A stretch of DNA of 37,610 nt, from assembly GCA_030668825.1 (NCBI GenBank), contig DAOVET010000021.1, positions 1-37,610 of the forward strand. The letters are read 5' to 3'. The position numbers and the translations under genes are program-made. This document shows positions 21,900-31,458 of the stretch, piece after piece (position 1 is the first letter of the stretch; each line of letters opens with the position of its first letter). The notes below the pieces were generated by a model that was not told the origin of the DNA, made no database searches, and saw only the letters and a list, made by a program, of their open reading frames with translations. This stretch comes from Candidatus Heimdallarchaeota archaeon. Its GTDB lineage: Archaea; Asgardarchaeota; Heimdallarchaeia; Heimdallarchaeales; Heimdallarchaeaceae.

Positions 21900-22670
21900 T
21901 TAAGTCCCATATCTTCTCTGTCTTCTTTGATATGTTCTAATTGCTCTCCACAAATCTATTTTTCTAAAAAGTGGCCAATGAACCTCTGCAAAATAATATT
22001 CAGAAAATGCTGATTGCCATAAAAGAAATCCTGACAATCTTTCTTCTCCCGACGTTCTAATGATTAAATCAGGATCTGGGATACCGTCAGTGTATAAGTG
22101 ATTACTGATTAATTCTTCATCAACATCATCAAAGTTAATGCTCCCCTCTTTCATTTTATCTAATATCTGTCTCAATGCGTCTACAATTTCTGCACGACCT
22201 CCATAAGCCATACAAAGATTGAGAACATATTTATCGTGATTTTTGGTTGCATCTTCTGTTAATTTTATCTCTTCTTGTACATTTTTAGGTAGTAGGTTTA
22301 ATCTTCCTAGAACATTTACTTTTACTTTATTTTTAGCTATACGTTTGTCCTCTCTGATTCTTCTCAAATTTTCAACTGCAAGTTTCATAATGGTTTCTAC
22401 TTGCTTCTTAGGTCGCGAAAAATTTTCCGTTGAAAATACCCAACAGGTAATTACCTCTACCTCTAATTCCCAACACCAATTAAGAACCGCTTCAAGTTTT
22501 TCAGCACCAAGTTCATAACCCGTTTTATAATCAATACCCATCATTTTACTAGCTCTTCTATTTCCATCTAAGATAATTCCAATATGTTTTGGAATAGGTT
22601 TGTTTTTTATTTCAGCAAAAAGTCTTTTCGCATATATTTTATAGATGAATTTGGGTATTTGTAATCGCAT
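21900..22670 (-). CDS. uppS: cis-prenyltransferase (undecaprenyl diphosphate synthase family)
   Basis: PKHIGIILDGNRR, FSTENFSR, YGGRAEI, PDLIIRTSGEERLSGFLLWQ and C-terminal RRYG motifs. Confidence 0.96.
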   Translation of the reverse strand: MRLQIPKFIYKIYAKRLFAEIKNKPIPKHIGIILDGNRRASKMMGIDYKTGYELGAEKLEAVLNWCWELEVEVITCWVFSTENFSRPKKQVETIMKLAVENLRRIREDKRIAKNKVKVNVLGRLNLLPKNVQEEIKLTEDATKNHDKYVLNLCMAYGGRAEIVDALRQILDKMKEGSINFDDVDEELISNHLYTDGIPDPDLIIRTSGEERLSGFLLWQSAFSEYYFAEVHWPLFRKIDLWRAIRTYQRRQRRYGT

Positions 22671-22798: not shown

Positions 22799-23707
22799 TC
22801 AGATCATTCCATTTTCTACTAGCAATCTAAACTCATCAAGAGATAGATTTTCTCCATTTTCATATTTCTCGAATGCTTTATCAACACTTTCTTGTATATT
22901 AGATTTGATTCTTTCTCTAATCTTTTTTCTGTGCTCGTTTTGAGCTTCCTTGAGTTGCTTCTTTAGCTCATTTTTTTCGGTAACCTTTGAAAGAAAATCT
23001 TTATGATAATTATCTGCTTTTTTCTTGTTATTCAAGAAATCCTTATGATAGTCATTTGCTTTTTTTCTCAAAGCATTAACTTGTTGAAAATGTTGATTCA
23101 TTAGATTGTGATAAATTTGGGATTCTTTTGCATAATCAACTATTTGAGAATGTAATTTATTGATTTGTTTTTGGGAGGATGAAATTTTTTTCCATAATTC
23201 GGTTTGATGAGTTGTGATGTGAACTTCTTCTGCTAATCTATTTAGACTTTCAGAGAGTTTTTCCAAAATCTGAATCATCTCTTTCTCTTCTTCAGGTTTC
23301 AGAACACTTGTTTGCAAATCCCATTCCAATTTGTCTATCTTGCTGCTAAGATTGCTCATACTTCTTCTTTTTTTTTGAATATCCCCTTTATCTAGGAGTT
23401 TCTCTTTCTCAACAATTTCTTCTAGGGCCTCCTTATTAACATGTAAACCTTCAAACAATTCTTTTTGTTTTAGCTTTAATTGCTTAACTTGAGTGTTTAA
23501 ATCATCACGTTTAACTGTATATTCTTTAGCTTTTTCCAATAATTGATGAATCTCTTCATTAATCTCATTTCTTAATCCAAGAGAATCTTTTGTGAGCTGG
23601 TTAAATTCGTTTCTTTGATTCTTAAGAACAGTAATGTTTTCCTCTAATTTGCTTAGTTTTACTACTAAATCATCGCCTGCAAATTGTTCGTTAGTTAATT
23701 CTCCCAT
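22799..23707 (-). CDS. Archaeal coiled-coil protein (COG1340-like)
   Basis: Heptad-rich throughout (RNEFN...RNEIN...RDDLN), LEWDLQT and terminal AFEKYENGENLSLDEFRLL. Confidence 0.78.
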   Translation of the reverse strand: MGELTNEQFAGDDLVVKLSKLEENITVLKNQRNEFNQLTKDSLGLRNEINEEIHQLLEKAKEYTVKRDDLNTQVKQLKLKQKELFEGLHVNKEALEEIVEKEKLLDKGDIQKKRRSMSNLSSKIDKLEWDLQTSVLKPEEEKEMIQILEKLSESLNRLAEEVHITTHQTELWKKISSSQKQINKLHSQIVDYAKESQIYHNLMNQHFQQVNALRKKANDYHKDFLNNKKKADNYHKDFLSKVTEKNELKKQLKEAQNEHRKKIRERIKSNIQESVDKAFEKYENGENLSLDEFRLLVENGMI

Positions 23708-23832: not shown

Positions 23833-24222
23833 TCAGCTAAGTTGTCGTTCAACTTCTTGAGCTGCTCTAGCCATATCCAGAAATACTAAACCTAATTTTG
23901 CTTCCTTTCTAGCTGAAACAGTTAGTACAGCATTTTGTCCAGCAGCTAAAGTAATAATGTATCCGTAAGCGCCTTCAATGAAGATTTTTTCTAATTCTCC
24001 TCTTTGCATCTCCTGAGCTACCCTTTCCCCTAGAGAAAGCATTGCGGCAGTCATTGCAGCTAAACGTGCTTCTTCAATTTCTTGTGGTAGTACTGAAGCT
24101 ATAGGTAATCCTTCTATTGATACAATTGCTGCGCTCTCAATTTCAGGAACTTTAATTTTCAGATCACTTAATGTAGTCTTTAATTCATTTGTTTTATTTT
24201 CGAATGTTATTCCAAAAGCCAT
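23833..24222 (-). CDS. Roadblock/LC7 protein, MglB type
   Basis: IESAAIVSIEGLPIASVLP, RLAAMTAAMLSLGER, IFIEGAYGYII and AKLGLVFLDM with a C-terminal helix. Confidence 0.93.
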   Translation of the reverse strand: MAFGITFENKTNELKTTLSDLKIKVPEIESAAIVSIEGLPIASVLPQEIEEARLAAMTAAMLSLGERVAQEMQRGELEKIFIEGAYGYIITLAAGQNAVLTVSARKEAKLGLVFLDMARAAQEVERQLS

Positions 24223-24506: not shown

Positions 24507-25721
24507 TTAGAATACCAGTTTCATTTTCTTACCAGTGAACTCAGCAATTCTCTCTTCAACAGATTTAGAAATAGATGCAATTTTATCATCAATTTCTTCC
24601 TTTTCTCTTCTAAGTGAGAGTGTTATACGGTTTCTATCAATTGTAAGATTATCAATCTCTTGTTCAAATTTTTTTATCTTAACAAAAAGTTGCATATCTT
24701 CAAATTTGTGATTTATAGCTTCATTTTGTTTTATAATGTATTGAGCTCTCTTCTGATTTTCTAACAGCTCATCATTAACTATTTCATCAATATTATCAAA
24801 TGCTCTTTGAAGTTTTTCTTTCTTCATCTGAATTGAAGGGTCAAGACTTATTTCTTTTAGAGTCTGAAGAGCTGCTTTAACTTCTCGATATCCTTCTGAT
24901 TCTTTAATGAAAAGACCTAAAGGATCTTTTATCAAACCCTTCATTATATCTTTATCATAATTATCTAAAATTATTTTCTTATTATCTGATGCTCTAAGTA
25001 CCTTATTGCAGAGTTTTTTAATTTCAGAAACTTTATTGGAAATTGAAATTTCTATGTGTTCTAGTTCCTTTTTATTATTTTCCGATTGAATGAAACCTGG
25101 ATGATTTTTCAATTCATTTAGCTTTTTCTTTTGCTTGTCGATTTCCTTAGTTAACTTCTCTACTTCATTTGCATGTGAGTTTATTTCCTCTTCTAGTTCA
25201 TTGTCCCTTTGTACTAAATGAGTAAGATTTTCAATGTCATCGAGCACCTTCTCTTTTGGAACAATCTCTGAATAATTAACCATAGTTTTTGTTTCAAAGT
25301 GATGTATTTCTTCTTTAAGTCTTGTAAGAGTTCTATCCAAGCTCTTGACTTTATCTTTGTAAGATCTATCTCTTTTCAACCAAGATAAGTACTTTGCAAG
25401 AAAACTCATGTATGAATTTAATTTATTCTTTAGAACAGCTGCAAAATTCTCAAGGTTATTGTAAGTAATGTTTTCTGGAATTTCTATATCATCAAATAAC
25501 TCGTTAGTTTTGATATAGATCGTTGTAGCATAATTTTGGTAAACATCAGGATCTTTTATATCAGAGTAATCAAAACGATGTGCAGAACTTTTTAATTCCT
25601 CAACTTTATCATTAATAGATCTAATTTGTTTTGATGCACTATTTCTATAACCAGAAAAAGATGAAGATACTCGACTATTAAACCATTCAAAGGCTTTCTC
25701 TAAAGTTAATTCTTGGGACAT
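24507..25721 (-). CDS. Long alpha-helical coiled-coil protein of unknown function
   Basis: 404-aa ORF rich in E/K/L heptads; no Walker motifs or transmembrane segment. Confidence 0.75.
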   Translation of the reverse strand: MSQELTLEKAFEWFNSRVSSSFSGYRNSASKQIRSINDKVEELKSSAHRFDYSDIKDPDVYQNYATTIYIKTNELFDDIEIPENITYNNLENFAAVLKNKLNSYMSFLAKYLSWLKRDRSYKDKVKSLDRTLTRLKEEIHHFETKTMVNYSEIVPKEKVLDDIENLTHLVQRDNELEEEINSHANEVEKLTKEIDKQKKKLNELKNHPGFIQSENNKKELEHIEISISNKVSEIKKLCNKVLRASDNKKIILDNYDKDIMKGLIKDPLGLFIKESEGYREVKAALQTLKEISLDPSIQMKKEKLQRAFDNIDEIVNDELLENQKRAQYIIKQNEAINHKFEDMQLFVKIKKFEQEIDNLTIDRNRITLSLRREKEEIDDKIASISKSVEERIAEFTGKKMKLVF

Positions 25722-27444: not shown

Positions 27445-28377
27445 TTGGTTAAAGCGGTTCTTGTACTGAAAACTTCAGGTTCATGTAGATACTACAGAAT
27501 CTATGATTCCCAATGGGCGTCTGAAGAGAAGAATGTAGAGGTAATCAGTTACATTACTGCAGTAACATCAATTATAAGTGAGTTTGGTGAAAAGTCTCCT
27601 AAACTAATTGAATTTGGTAATAACGAGATTGTTTGTGAAGCAAAAGGGGACTATATTCTCACTATTGTAAAAGAGAAAGGAACTTACGAATCCTTAGTAA
27701 ATAGAGTAAAGAAGAATTTTCAGGATAATTTTCAACCTTTAGAGATAATCAAAGAAAGTAGTCCATGGATTGAAGATGAAGAATTTCTAGAGAAGGAAAG
27801 AGAAGGAATTTATTATTTCATGCGAAATCTGAATTTGATCATCAATAGACGAACAATCAACTCAAAGAAAAATAAAGCTGTTATTGTTGAAGTTGAAGAT
27901 GATTTAGAAGAACCCCTGCTTATACAAGATGTAGATATGTTAATAACCTTAGAATCAGGACAGCCTGTTTTTCTTATGTTGACTTTATCTTTACCCTATG
28001 ATGCAACACTCATAACTGCCTTTATGTCAGCTGTTCTAGATTTAGGTAAATCAATTGGATTAGGGGAACTAAAACTCCTTGAGAGCGAGAATATAATTAT
28101 TTATGTTCAAAAAATTGAGAAAGCGTTCACTGTAGTTATATCTCAGAAGAAAGAATATCGTGCAGTTTATAAAAGGTTTGCAGAATTTGTAGCTGATCTT
28201 TGTAATGATTGGCTTTACAAGCAAGGAATTGAAATAGATGAAGCTTTTCAGATTTTTGAAGAGAAAAAACATTTTGAGGAAATAATTAAGATATTAATTG
28301 ACACAGATACTTGGGAGAAGCATCTTATCAAAGAGTGGGAGAGAGATTATGCTGAACAATTAAGAATAGAAAACTGA
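27445..28377 (+). CDS. Tandem (double) longin-like domain protein
   Basis: Two repeats of the longin pattern: VKAVLVLKTSGSCRY...ISYITAVTSIISEFG...IEFGNNEIV and DMLITLESGQPVF...LITAFMSAVLDLGKSIG...LESENIIIYV. Confidence 0.7.
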   Translation: MVKAVLVLKTSGSCRYYRIYDSQWASEEKNVEVISYITAVTSIISEFGEKSPKLIEFGNNEIVCEAKGDYILTIVKEKGTYESLVNRVKKNFQDNFQPLEIIKESSPWIEDEEFLEKEREGIYYFMRNLNLIINRRTINSKKNKAVIVEVEDDLEEPLLIQDVDMLITLESGQPVFLMLTLSLPYDATLITAFMSAVLDLGKSIGLGELKLLESENIIIYVQKIEKAFTVVISQKKEYRAVYKRFAEFVADLCNDWLYKQGIEIDEAFQIFEEKKHFEEIIKILIDTDTWEKHLIKEWERDYAEQLRIEN

Positions 28378-28780: not shown

Positions 28781-30124
28781 CTAGAAGGAAACATCAAAAT
28801 CTCTAGAGATTCGGATTATTTTTTGAGAGATATCTCCTTCCAATTTTGTTTTAAAAATAACTTCGATTTTTGGTGTTTTACAATTATGTTTTCTAAACAC
28901 CTGTTGGATTTTCTCTTCTATACTCTTTGAAATAGTTCCTTTATCTGCATTAGTTTCTGGAATAACATGAATTACAACTTTACTATAGTTTTTCTGAATA
29001 GCTTGATATTCTTCAATTTCCTCAGAGCTGCTAATAATAGCACGTCTAATGAAGTCAGGAAAGATAAATTGCATCTCTCCATTATCGTTTCTTTGTGCCC
29101 AAAACAAATCATCTGATCTACCTAGAACTTGCTCAATCACTCTAAATGAAGAACCACACTCACATTTATATGGACTTGTTATGATTAAGTCGTTTAACTC
29201 ATAGCGAATTATTGGTTGTGCAGTTCGATGCAAATCAGTGATTATCATTTTAAAACAAGGTTCTCCTGGGGGTGTTGGTGTTCCATCTGAATTTAAGGTC
29301 TGAACATATATCAAATCCTCATTAATGTGTAAAGAACCATGTTTACAAGACATAGCTATTGATCCCTCACTTGCTTGATATATTTGATGGATTTTACTAC
29401 CATATATTTGTTCAAGCTTTTCTTCAATTTCTGGATAGAGTATTTCAGCATAAGAAATTACTCTCTTGGGGGAGATATTCAATCTGCCTTCGTTTATCTC
29501 GTCTGCAAGCATTTCAAGCATTGAAGGAGGAGCTGAAAGCACGTTTGGTTGAAGTTCTTTTAATTGATGTTTTATTTCATCTATTGTGTTTAATTGACTA
29601 ATGTGAGTAAGTTTTTGTCCGAATTTGTCAATCTGAAAAGCAGGAGTTGTCACACGTAGAATAAATGCAATATTTAATCGTAAAGTTCGAGGAAAACTGA
29701 AACGTGAAAAAAAAGCAGCACGTAAATATTTTTCCTCAGAAGGACTAGTGATAACAACCCCCTTGTTACCGCTTGTTCCCGAAGACATTGCAACATTGTA
29801 CTTTCCATATCGTTTATCATAATTTTGAGTTTCTTCATTCCTTAAACAAAAATCAATTAATTCCTGTTTTTTTAAACCAACTGTGTTATAAGTGGTTAAA
29901 TTCTCCATCATTATTTTCTTATTAACAGTAGGGAGATTCCAGACATCTTTTGAATCCAACTTTCTGTAGTATTCTTTAAAAAAATCTGAACTATTTGTAG
30001 CGTATTGAACAATATTTTGAGATTTCTTTAATTGGTATTTCTCAAGTTTCTCTTTAGACATTGATTTTATACGCCTTCTGCATGCAATAAAGAAGTAGAG
30101 AAATGATTTTGTTTCAAAATCCAC
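28781..30124 (-). CDS. Adenylate-forming enzyme, F390 synthetase/PaaK-related family
   Basis: LPTVNKKIMMEN, SSGTSGNKG, QIYQASEG, LHINED, ITDL, QPIIRYELND, CECGS and GRSDD motifs. GTG at 30124 is preferred as start; the frame is open to TTG at 30205. Confidence 0.85.
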   Translation of the reverse strand: MDFETKSFLYFFIACRRRIKSMSKEKLEKYQLKKSQNIVQYATNSSDFFKEYYRKLDSKDVWNLPTVNKKIMMENLTTYNTVGLKKQELIDFCLRNEETQNYDKRYGKYNVAMSSGTSGNKGVVITSPSEEKYLRAAFFSRFSFPRTLRLNIAFILRVTTPAFQIDKFGQKLTHISQLNTIDEIKHQLKELQPNVLSAPPSMLEMLADEINEGRLNISPKRVISYAEILYPEIEEKLEQIYGSKIHQIYQASEGSIAMSCKHGSLHINEDLIYVQTLNSDGTPTPPGEPCFKMIITDLHRTAQPIIRYELNDLIITSPYKCECGSSFRVIEQVLGRSDDLFWAQRNDNGEMQFIFPDFIRRAIISSSEEIEEYQAIQKNYSKVVIHVIPETNADKGTISKSIEEKIQQVFRKHNCKTPKIEVIFKTKLEGDISQKIIRISRDFDVSF

Positions 30125-30308
30125 TATTATACCAACTGTATATATTATAGGTTGTAATAAATCAATAATAATAATAACTGTTTTGAATGGTCGAAGATGT
30201 TGCAAAAACAGTACGTTTCATTATTGACCAAGATGAAACCTCAAACATTGATCATATCCTCTTGTTGCCAGGTAAACAATAAGTGGAAATATCCTCTCCC
30301 TTTTTTGA

Positions 30309-30875
30309 TTAAACCGCGTATAATTTTTTGAGAAGAACTTCTCTAGATAGGGATTGAAATGCTCTTTTTACTCCAATACCTTCAATGGCTATTGTTTCAT
30401 AAACAGGTATATTTGCCCCCAAATTAAGAGAATCTACTAATTCTTTTTTTGGCATTGCATCAGGGACATCTCTCTTGTTAAGTGCAATAACAATGGGGGT
30501 TTCTGTTCCAATTTTATCTCCCAGTTCATTTTTCAGTTCCTCAGCAGATTCTATATTATCCGCTAACATTGCTCGAGATGAGTCTGCTACAAATAGTAAC
30601 CCATCCACTCCCTTTAACACCAGAGACCTTTGATGCCTATGTCTTCTTTGTCCTGCTACTGTGTATATGTCTAGTATCACTGAAGATGTTGCCATAAAAG
30701 GACTGAAATCAAAATAGATAGTTCTTCCTGATGGATCTTCTATACTATTCAGTCCCCCCTTCTTTATACCAGTAACATCGGTGTGAAGTTTCTTCAGTAG
30801 TGTAGTCTTGCCAGCTAAGCTTGGTCCTACAAAGACCAACTTAAAATGCATTTTTCCTGATGCGTCTTTTCTCAT
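30309..30875 (-). CDS. Small GTPase, MglA family
   Basis: G1 GPSLAGKTT, G2 GRTIYFDF, G3 YTVAGQ (no Asp, as in MglA), GVDGLLFVADS, G4 NKRD and G5 ETIA. Confidence 0.92.
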   Translation of the reverse strand: MRKDASGKMHFKLVFVGPSLAGKTTLLKKLHTDVTGIKKGGLNSIEDPSGRTIYFDFSPFMATSSVILDIYTVAGQRRHRHQRSLVLKGVDGLLFVADSSRAMLADNIESAEELKNELGDKIGTETPIVIALNKRDVPDAMPKKELVDSLNLGANIPVYETIAIEGIGVKRAFQSLSREVLLKKLYAV

Positions 30876-30922
30876 CTTTTCCTCATCAACTTTTCAATGA
30901 TGTCTCCGTGTTTAAGGCCTTC

Positions 30923-31222
30923 TTAACTTTTTTCTCTCAATACAATTAAAACATAATCATTTTCAGGAGCTACTAAAATTTCTCCATGACTTGTATCTAG
31001 GGTGAAGAAATTCAATTCTCCTTCATTTAGCTCAGTAACAACTGCCTTTGCCCTACCTACAAGTGATGCAACTAAAGCTGACACATTTTCTCTCATTTCC
31101 ATGCTAAGATTTTGTGTGCTAGAGATTGGCAGTCCATCATTACTAGTGATTATTACTCCTCTTACTCCCGGATGTGACTCTAAGGATTTTAAAGTCTCTT
31201 CAAATTGTTTTTGTGATATCAT
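30923..31222 (-). CDS. Roadblock/LC7 protein resembling dynein light chain roadblock
   Basis: [29 protein letters not shown]...[14 protein letters not shown]; 99 aa, ending at the last strand with no MglB-type C-terminal helix. Confidence 0.9.
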
Positions 31223-31458
31223 TCGATAATCTCCTTTAATTTGGTACCAATTTAATTAATTTTCTCTCAAGATATTAATTCTATTATATACATACTATGA
31301 ATCATTTTTAAAAACTTATGATAGTTTTCAGTGTCAAGAAATGTTTTTCTGGTTAGTTCTTATAGTTTTTTAAATGTGAAAAATAACAATTCACCAAAAT
31401 ATACATTAAGGTTAAGAAATTCTAGAAATTAATCGAATCATTACTCATGTTGGTTCTA

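Follow-up and report, generated by a model that had tools for sequence, protein, structure and literature searches.

Why a protein resembling a eukaryotic dynein light chain should be encoded beside a polarity-type GTPase in an archaeon is the question raised by a contig from a Candidatus Heimdallarchaeota archaeon (GenBank assembly GCA_030668825.1, contig DAOVET010000021.1). In this stretch of 37,610 nucleotides, the whole of which we analyzed and refer to as the window, a short Roadblock/LC7 gene of the DYNLRB (dynein light chain roadblock) type, here called RBLC7 (30923..31222, minus strand), lies directly upstream of a gene for an MglA-type small GTPase (30309..30875, minus strand). An initial annotation, made from the sequence alone, had described a 99-residue roadblock protein encoded 47 nt upstream of an MglA-family GTPase, and the open reading frames (ORFs), strand and spacer all agree with that description. 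It had also taken the pair to be a snapshot of a dynein light chain ancestor still serving the GTPase. The reading we prefer, to which we give a probability of roughly 0.6, is a different one: the pair would be a reduced form of an older cluster with the order UP / RBLC7 - X - MglA-like GTPase - full-length roadblock - UppS, where UP and X are further roadblock paralogues and UppS is a prenyltransferase, and RBLC7 would be the platform or adaptor subunit of the GTPase's set of roadblocks.

The question reaches beyond this locus. Koonin and Aravind reportedly proposed in 2000 that the dynein roadblock light chains derive from an ancient family of NTPase regulators. With the apparent closest archaeal relative of DYNLRB physically linked to an MglA-type GTPase and to roadblock paralogues across many Asgard classes, that old idea can be put in terms of defined, testable proteins, and the linkage provides one of the few predictable matches of a GTPase with its regulators in Asgard archaea.

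Identity of RBLC7 and its kinship with DYNLRB

The assignment of RBLC7 rests on its ORF, Pfam and Protein Data Bank (PDB) matches, a profile and a tree. The Pfam family Robl_LC7 (PF03259) matched residues 7–95 with an E value of 5.9e-21 and 74.5 bits (cut-off 23), and NCBIfam gave no family for either of the two roadblock proteins of the window, RBLC7 and MB. The closest PDB chain was 7f8f_A, a protein of 94 residues entered as "Robl_LC7 domain-containing protein," which aligned end to end with RBLC7 (E = 1.2e-25). The RBLC7 of one genome in our set (G303, locus L043) has every letter the same as the 7f8f_A sequence, and a named Odinarchaeota locus shows the same arrangement as L043. By these matches the RBLC7 of the window is the orthologue of Odin-RBLC7 (PDB 7F8F). 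Of 400 genomes of the phylum, 348 had an orthologue (E ≤ 1e-10), mostly as a single copy.

Residues 1–96 of RBLC7 align with the whole of 7f8f_A and with DYNLRB chains of 96–97 residues, with about 5 residues beyond the last strand, and all 22 Asgard orthologues that we aligned stop no more than about 9 residues past the last conserved strand. Judged by where these alignments end, RBLC7 has no C-terminal helix and its chain finishes after the fifth strand. This is what the initial annotation had noted in comparing RBLC7 with the paralogue at 23833 (MB), for which AlphaFold2 models a C-terminal helix at residues 110–128 (mean predicted local distance difference test score, pLDDT, 89.5).

As a single sequence, RBLC7 matched many DYNLRB chains in the PDB with E values of 2e-15 to 1e-13. 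Aligned with Drosophila roadblock (3l7h) and with 9e5c, a dynein light chain roadblock, RBLC7 had the motifs EETLK, GV.G, G.P..ST, F and E.(L/M)VAP..(D)Y.LIV in common with both, in keeping with the likeness to eukaryotic DYNLRB pointed out in the initial annotation. When a profile of the 22 Asgard orthologues was searched against the PDB, DYNLRB was found at 1.3e-24 (about 89 bits) and every next family, other Asgard roadblocks included, at 40 bits or less; LAMTOR2 scored 1.5e-3 (21.8 bits) and LAMTOR5 0.14 (15.5 bits). No bacterial MglB chain in the PDB was matched at E ≤ 1, either by the profile or by the single sequence.

We also considered a LAMTOR identity. The Pfam LAMTOR5 model gave RBLC7 26.7 bits, just below its cut-off of 27, and matched all 22 orthologues at E ≤ 0.001 (best 2.9e-8); solved LAMTOR5 chains reached E values of 0.14–0.78 only, whether compared with the single sequence or with the profile. 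On the Pfam score under cut-off and these PDB values we retained the likeness to LAMTOR as a weak resemblance only.

Among 1.84 billion representative proteins, RBLC7 gave 364 matches at E ≤ 0.001, and among the 150 matches listed, Asgard-like short roadblocks came first and DYNLRB-type sequences followed. Ten of these representatives were looked up by name: four were eukaryotic (rotifer, Trypanosoma, macaque and diplonemid), one bore the source label "dynein light chain roadblock-type," and another stood for a cluster with Thor- and Heimdallarchaeota proteins. For phylogeny, 117 of the 150 passed a filter for a single full-length domain; 102 of them were DYNLRB-like, and these were thinned at 60% identity to 48, from which 25 were picked. 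Together with 22 Asgard RBLC7 sequences, 15 archaeal-like representatives and 8 sequences each of X, MB and UP, they made up a careful IQ-TREE analysis of 86 rows by 99 columns.

In this tree, RBLC7, the archaeal representatives and DYNLRB were split from X, MB and UP with support of 99/93. The DYNLRB rows formed a single clade (100/100) within the RBLC7 radiation, and the nodes that would name the sister of DYNLRB were weakly supported (87/45 and 80/24). A quick tree of 122 rows was concordant (96 and 100). The outcome that the initial annotation had named as refuting, a place within MglB clades, was not seen in this tree, which is composed of Asgard, archaeal-like and DYNLRB-like rows without bacterial MglB or LAMTOR. 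These results support placing RBLC7 with DYNLRB and not with the MglB-type roadblocks, and by sequence this Asgard-wide short roadblock is the closest archaeal relative of DYNLRB. Dynein is not known from archaea and no dynein partner is expected here, although the genome was not searched for dynein heavy or intermediate chains; we have therefore filed RBLC7 as DYNLRB-like and not as a dynein light chain.

The adjacent GTPase

The protein encoded downstream of RBLC7 has 188 residues, and its ORF, PDB matches and an alignment of orthologues point to an MglA-type small GTPase of the group-1-like kind (R51 T52, TVAGQ, NKRD). Its top solved relatives were MglA of Thermus thermophilus (5.1e-31, 111 bits) and of Myxococcus xanthus (1.4e-28, 103 bits), against 2.9e-10 and 43.5 bits for the best Arf (Arf5); Pfam, which has no MglA model, calls the protein Arf at 57 bits. 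The switch I motif GRTIYFDF occupies residues 50–57 (G-R51-T52) and the G3 motif TVAGQ residues 72–76, so that the intrinsic Arg and the TVxGQ reported in the initial annotation are indeed present. Among 21 orthologues, R51 is kept in at least 90%, and T72, A74, G75 and Q76 are invariant. Between G1 and G2 there is no gap relative to Thermus MglA.

Group-1 MglA proteins are defined by an intrinsic Arg and TVPGQ, according to the text of Wuichet and Sogaard-Andersen (2014; PMC4316618). The GTPase of the window fits this definition, but Ala replaces the Pro of TVPGQ. As a separate observation, the switch I Arg is lost in the MglA-like GTPases of two Borrarchaeota-type loci, L032 (5050-5637) and L086 (4144-4728), which read G-F-T and G-L-T; it is kept in all other aligned orthologues.

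Gene neighborhood across Asgard archaea

Within the family to which the window belongs (f1), all 29 loci had RBLC7 and the GTPase on the same strand, separated by 32–89 nt as measured by tblastn (the tblastn gap of 51 nt in the window corresponds to the 47-nt spacer), a recurrence that speaks against a chance pairing. The pair was also seen in 24 of 28 named Heimdallarchaeota loci, AB_125, Heimdallarchaeum aukensis and endolithica included; the other four were cut by contig ends. Outside f1 we compared one or more loci from each of 25 further families, with flanks of 3–5 kb. An MglA-like GTPase occurred within these flanks in 14 of the 25, X adjoined RBLC7 in 15, and at least one other roadblock paralogue was present at the RBLC7 locus in every one of them. 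In four lineages that we checked among those without it there, the MglA-like orthologue (44–59% identical) sits elsewhere in the genome without roadblock neighbors.

The fullest arrangement, with UP on the opposite strand followed by RBLC7 - X - GTPase - MB (- UppS), was found complete or nearly so in families f9-f14, f28 and f30-f33 and in named Borr-, Jord-, Frey-, Hermod- and Atabeyarchaeia loci. Simpler arrangements were RBLC7 - X - MB without the GTPase, in Odin and in one metagenome-assembled genome labeled "Hodarchaeota"; RBLC7 with X alone, in Sif and family f7 (X is the sole cluster partner of RBLC7 in f29 too); and RBLC7 with UP and/or MB, in Helarchaeota-labeled loci and families f15-f17 and f19-f21. 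Direct adjacency of RBLC7 and the GTPase was confined to f1, f2 and f3, all of the window's order. Parsimony, applied without a root for the phylum, favors an ancestral cluster that contained X, from which the direct adjacency in the window would be derived. Operon conservation across Asgard archaea, one of the checks that had been suggested, holds in part: linkage to the GTPase recurs in the 14 families given above, while direct adjacency is limited to a single order.

The changing company of RBLC7 also suggests a rather different explanation, in which the two genes stand together merely as a relic of earlier gene order, without a direct functional tie. RBLC7 would then be a general helix-binding dimerization adaptor for roadblocks, Rab-like GTPases and cytoskeletal or membrane proteins, and the GTPase would be regulated by full-length roadblocks alone. 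RBLC7 is near-universal while its neighbors vary: UP accompanies it in f17, f19, f20 and f21, nothing but X does so in f7 and f29, and Rab-like GTPases are found beside it in f5 and in one f19 genome. This is what the explanation would lead one to expect, and Tran et al. propose a GTPase-free role as a helix-binding scaffold in the text of their paper (PMC10933270). We nevertheless regard it as unlikely, given that the same GTPase family is linked to RBLC7 across many Asgard classes, that the linkage survived rearrangement, with three arrangements in the window's order keeping RBLC7, the GTPase, MB and a coiled-coil gene (described below) within a few kb, and that whatever replaces the MglA-like gene is once more a small GTPase or a roadblock.

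Some loci showed peculiarities of their own. At L034 (family f33), about 2.3 kb of transposase-like ORFs lie between RBLC7 and X, and at L037 and L102, X is broken into two ORFs. The tandem RBLC7-like ORFs of family f5 are about 20 nt apart, and about 1 kb upstream of them lies a gene for a Ras-family GTPase; these short roadblocks could be a heterodimeric pair.

The other roadblocks and a coiled-coil component

The window's genome retains a copy of X on another contig (C44, 20803..21327, minus strand; locus L131, 6804-7328), encoding a diverged MglB-like roadblock of 174 residues. The gene lies 384 nt from the contig end, upstream of KaiC-like and coiled-coil genes and with a Rab-like GTPase gene nearby on the opposite strand. 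The protein has diverged strongly, with an end branch of about 1.0 compared with at most 0.25 for the other X rows, and scores 136 bits against the X profile. X is typically about 155–165 residues long, and Pfam detected Robl_LC7 in 14 of 14 sequences and MAPKK1_Int (MP1/LAMTOR3) in 13 of 14. The top PDB match of the X profile was M. xanthus MglB (1.4e-7, 34 bits), followed by Asgard roadblocks and LAMTOR2; no LAMTOR3 chain in the PDB was matched by this profile at E ≤ 1. In the AlphaFold2 model of the own-genome X (mean pLDDT 79), a full roadblock domain with a third helix is joined through a linker of low confidence to a last helix at residues 153–173, and Foldseek groups the model with MK-D1 Roadblock3, MglB and LAMTOR2. 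Across X sequences the last helix carries a near-invariant ELKAALxELEKF-like motif after a variable linker, and the own-genome copy retains it. As modeled, the architecture of X is that of Myxococcus MglB, with its C-terminal helix, the role of which is treated in PMC6785124 and PMC13408092.

MB (23833..24222, minus strand) is a full-length roadblock of 129 residues with a C-terminal helix, as judged from its ORF, Pfam, synteny, a PDB profile search and the model described above. It is 61% identical to the Freyarchaeota copy and orthologous to the gene found after the GTPase in Asgard clusters elsewhere. Its profile gave 114 bits with Thor-RB (7F8M) and 101 bits with MK-D1 Roadblock3 (9JUE), and bacterial MglB reached 25 bits only; these scores identify MB as the orthologue of Thor-RB and of MK-D1 Roadblock3. 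The genome has two MB-type roadblocks, and the MB and UppS of the window lie 6 kb from the RBLC7-GTPase pair. A UP-type roadblock was not found in this genome by tblastn or with a 12-sequence UP profile, which, because the assembly is only 90.6% complete, is to be read as not found with these queries.

Upstream of MB lies a gene for a coiled-coil protein of 404 residues and no known family (24507..25721, minus strand), a candidate for a further component. It had no Pfam match, and Protein Atlas yielded archaeal hypothetical proteins only. Its homologues adjoin RBLC7 in L026-L028, L075, L076, L078, L133, G054 and G010, and it stays near RBLC7, the GTPase or MB through three arrangements in f1, f2 and f4 (L075, 3564-4829; L160, 3722-4945; L161, 6106-7335). 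It was found in exactly the order in which X left the cluster, and it may be a lineage-specific component.

That X has left the cluster bears on a second alternative, namely that RBLC7 is the MglB-equivalent of this lineage, having taken the mglB slot after the departure of X, and that its dimer stimulates GTP hydrolysis (or exchange) by positioning the intrinsic Arg and Gln. RBLC7 does lie directly upstream of the GTPase throughout f1, and in f2 and f3 as well, and the GTPase has kept its intrinsic Arg (see PMC4316618 for this residue in MglA), so that a GTPase-activating protein (GAP) would need only to be a platform. The strong divergence of the own-genome X also speaks for this alternative. 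Measured against MglB, however, RBLC7 agrees in its proximity to mglA (47 nt; 29 of 29 loci) and not in sequence kinship, bacterial MglB going unmatched at E ≤ 1, or in the full-length fold. Moreover, the genome retains an X with its C-terminal motif along with two MB-type roadblocks, and RBLC7 is retained in lineages whose GTPase is elsewhere. On balance we consider this alternative improbable.

Signs of an operon

The spacer between RBLC7 and the GTPase (30876..30922, minus strand) is 47 nt long and purine-rich, with GAGGA just before the ATG of the GTPase gene and no T-run. Upstream of RBLC7 is a promoter-like leader for the pair (31231..31325, minus strand), a function that we infer from its sequence and its conservation across the loci of the genus. 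It consists of an A/T-rich motif (31305..31325), a TATA-like element (31284..31291) and a Shine-Dalgarno-like AAAGGAG (31231..31237), all three of which are common across the genus, whereas the spacer differs from locus to locus in both its length and its sequence. The A/T-rich motif and the TATA-like element (31284..31325) stand about 60–100 nt upstream of the RBLC7 start, and their conservation at this distance implies a leader of some tens of nt. Taken together, these features make it most likely that RBLC7 and the GTPase are co-transcribed.

Two Logan contigs overlap the pair. One (X19, 203 nt, from a run recorded as RNA) falls within the GTPase gene and is about 97% identical to it, and the other (X18, 317 nt, from a run whose RNA status was guessed) spans the spacer at 30784..31100. 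Neither was counted in favor of co-transcription, because a contig is no proof of a transcript and runs of this kind may contain DNA.

Proposed role of RBLC7

In the reduced-cluster reading that we favor, X would have departed the cluster in the window's order and the gene for the 404-residue coiled-coil protein would have joined it. RBLC7 would dimerize, as its Odin orthologue does in the crystal, and the dimer would serve as one platform or adaptor subunit of a roadblock set that regulates or positions the GTPase. Its two-helix face would be free to contact the GTPase, and the groove left by the missing C-terminal helix would be free for the helix of a partner, which may be the tail of X or a coiled-coil protein. 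The full-length roadblocks X and perhaps MB would be the likelier GAP-type regulators.

Several observations count against this reading. In 11 of the 25 other families, RBLC7 has roadblock neighbors and no MglA-like gene in its 3–5 kb flanks, suggesting that it is tied more tightly to other roadblocks than to the GTPase; in Odin, the MglA-like gene is 141 kb away from RBLC7. Other small GTPases can be found in its place: in one f19 genome (G133, L050, 4001-5587), two Ras-family (Rab-like) GTPase genes come 48 nt after RBLC7, and in f5, two tandem diverged RBLC7-like genes lie near a Rab-like GTPase gene (L159, 5248-5931, and L163, 4913-5594; genomes G066 and G074). Co-transcription is not universal even within the window's order, as the divergent orientation of RBLC7 and the GTPase in family f4 shows, and TATA-like runs in the spacer of some more distant relatives make an internal promoter possible. 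As for the phylogeny, names were checked for just 5 of the 25 "eukaryotic" rows, and bacterial MglB and LAMTOR were not among the rows of the tree.

The reduced-cluster reading also departs from the snapshot of an ancestor still serving its GTPase with which we began. As worded, that idea was not supported by the comparison, in that the adjacency appears to be derived, X usually intervenes and has the MglB-like build, and those 11 families have no MglA-like gene within the flanks compared.

Other genes of the locus

Between MB and UppS, a gene for a coiled-coil protein of 302 residues (22799..23707, minus strand) was matched by Pfam DUF7121 at 75.2 bits. Homologues occur near the cluster in 20 loci, about 1 kb past UppS in Hermod-/Atabey-type loci (L104, 8224-9093; L113, 8501-9403) and near RBLC7 in Heimdallarchaeum. 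UppS itself, an undecaprenyl-diphosphate-synthase-type prenyltransferase (21900..22670, minus strand; Pfam Prenyltransf, 259 bits), comes after MB in many Asgard loci and marks the conserved end of the ancestral cluster; we mention it as context and claim no functional partnership. Two more genes were noted in passing. An ORF of 310 residues between the GTPase and MB (27445..28377, plus strand) weakly resembled the first longin domain of FUZ/MON1/HPS1 (25.0 bits, cut-off 26.1), with homologues at the same position in eight f1 loci, and the GTPase is followed by a gene for an AMP-binding (adenylate-forming) enzyme (28781..30205, minus strand), which probably starts downstream of the TTG listed for it.

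Relation to published work

The initial annotation had allowed that DYNLRB-like Asgard roadblocks might already have been reported, and they have been: the Odin orthologue was solved and likened to DLRB1 by Tran et al. (2024, Commun Biol; PMC10933270). As described there, Odin-RBLC7 is a homodimer without a C-terminal helix, was solved by molecular replacement with dynein DLRB1, and is most similar to MglB and DLRB1; the missing helix is proposed to leave a helix-binding site, without any GTPase being involved. The same paper states that GTPase genes of MK-D1 are generally not in operons with roadblock genes (Discussion) and already presents MglA-like GTPases of Asgard archaea (section 7), and its main-text sections contain no mention that we found of the RBLC7 gene neighborhood. 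PMC13408092 mentions that a Thorarchaeota MglA-MglB pair has been modeled with AlphaFold 3. Liu et al. (bioRxiv 10.1101/2020.10.19.343400) list three roadblock/longin and two GTPase families among Asgard core genes and describe a different operon (roadblock/Rab-like/DENN), and a paper of 2026 reports four roadblock clusters as eukaryote-enriched, with no gene context (PMC12962969). In the papers searched on Asgard roadblocks, MglA, MglB and GTPase neighborhoods, we found neither an RBLC7 - X - MglA - roadblock cluster nor an RBLC7-MglA pair described, although supplements may list them. What the present analysis adds is the cluster order and the RBLC7-MglA linkage; the RBLC7 family had already been published, together with its fold and its resemblance to the dynein light chain.

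A broader scenario can be entertained, if tentatively. The cluster may descend from an ancient, Asgard-wide, Ragulator-like platform of several roadblocks on one MglA-type GTPase, predating eukaryotes, with a truncated subunit of the DYNLRB/LAMTOR5-like kind, an MglB/LAMTOR3-like subunit with a docking helix, a full-length subunit and a fourth, divergent one. DYNLRB would then descend directly from the truncated subunit, having been recruited to dynein later while keeping its helix-binding groove. If the roadblocks do assemble on one GTPase, they would be a prokaryotic analogue of Ragulator-type platforms.

Comparison with known systems

Like the Asgard cluster, Ragulator (LAMTOR1-5) with the Rag GTPases combines full-length and truncated roadblocks with a GTPase, and the scores behind this resemblance are weak. 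The GTPase of the Asgard cluster is MglA-type and not Rag-type, and no LAMTOR1-like wrapping subunit was identified in the cluster.

DYNLRB (DYNLRB1/2, LC7 and Drosophila robl; PDB 1z09, 3l7h and 2hz5, among others) is the nearest family outside Asgard archaea. It shares with RBLC7 its length, its truncated fold class and motifs along the entire chain. The two are about 33–43% identical and differ in their surroundings: the DYNLRB gene product binds helices of the dynein intermediate chain (Tran et al., 2024, Fig. 5 legend; PMC10933270), and the context of RBLC7 is a small GTPase and other roadblocks.

Odin-RBLC7 is closer still, being orthologous and about 55% identical to the RBLC7 of the window, with the same short build lacking the C-terminal helix and the same first position in a roadblock cluster (L043). 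The Odin locus, however, reads UP / RBLC7 - X - MB without a GTPase, whereas in the window the GTPase is next to RBLC7 and X is on another contig.

The bacterial MglA-MglB systems of group 1 (Thermus, 3T12/3T1Q; Myxococcus, 6IZW) resemble the window in both the GTPase and the gene order. Their MglA likewise has an intrinsic Arg by the G2 Thr, a Thr instead of Asp in G3 and, in Thermus, an identical spacing between G1 and G2, with TVPGQ where the GTPase of the window has TVAGQ, and mglBA, too, has a roadblock gene immediately before the GTPase gene. The upstream roadblock is where they part, since RBLC7, unlike MglB, has no C-terminal helix and, at E ≤ 1, no sequence match to it. The MglB-like build, a full roadblock with a C-terminal helix, belongs among the Asgard proteins to X, and the Asgard cluster, unlike mglBA, has up to four roadblock paralogues around one GTPase.

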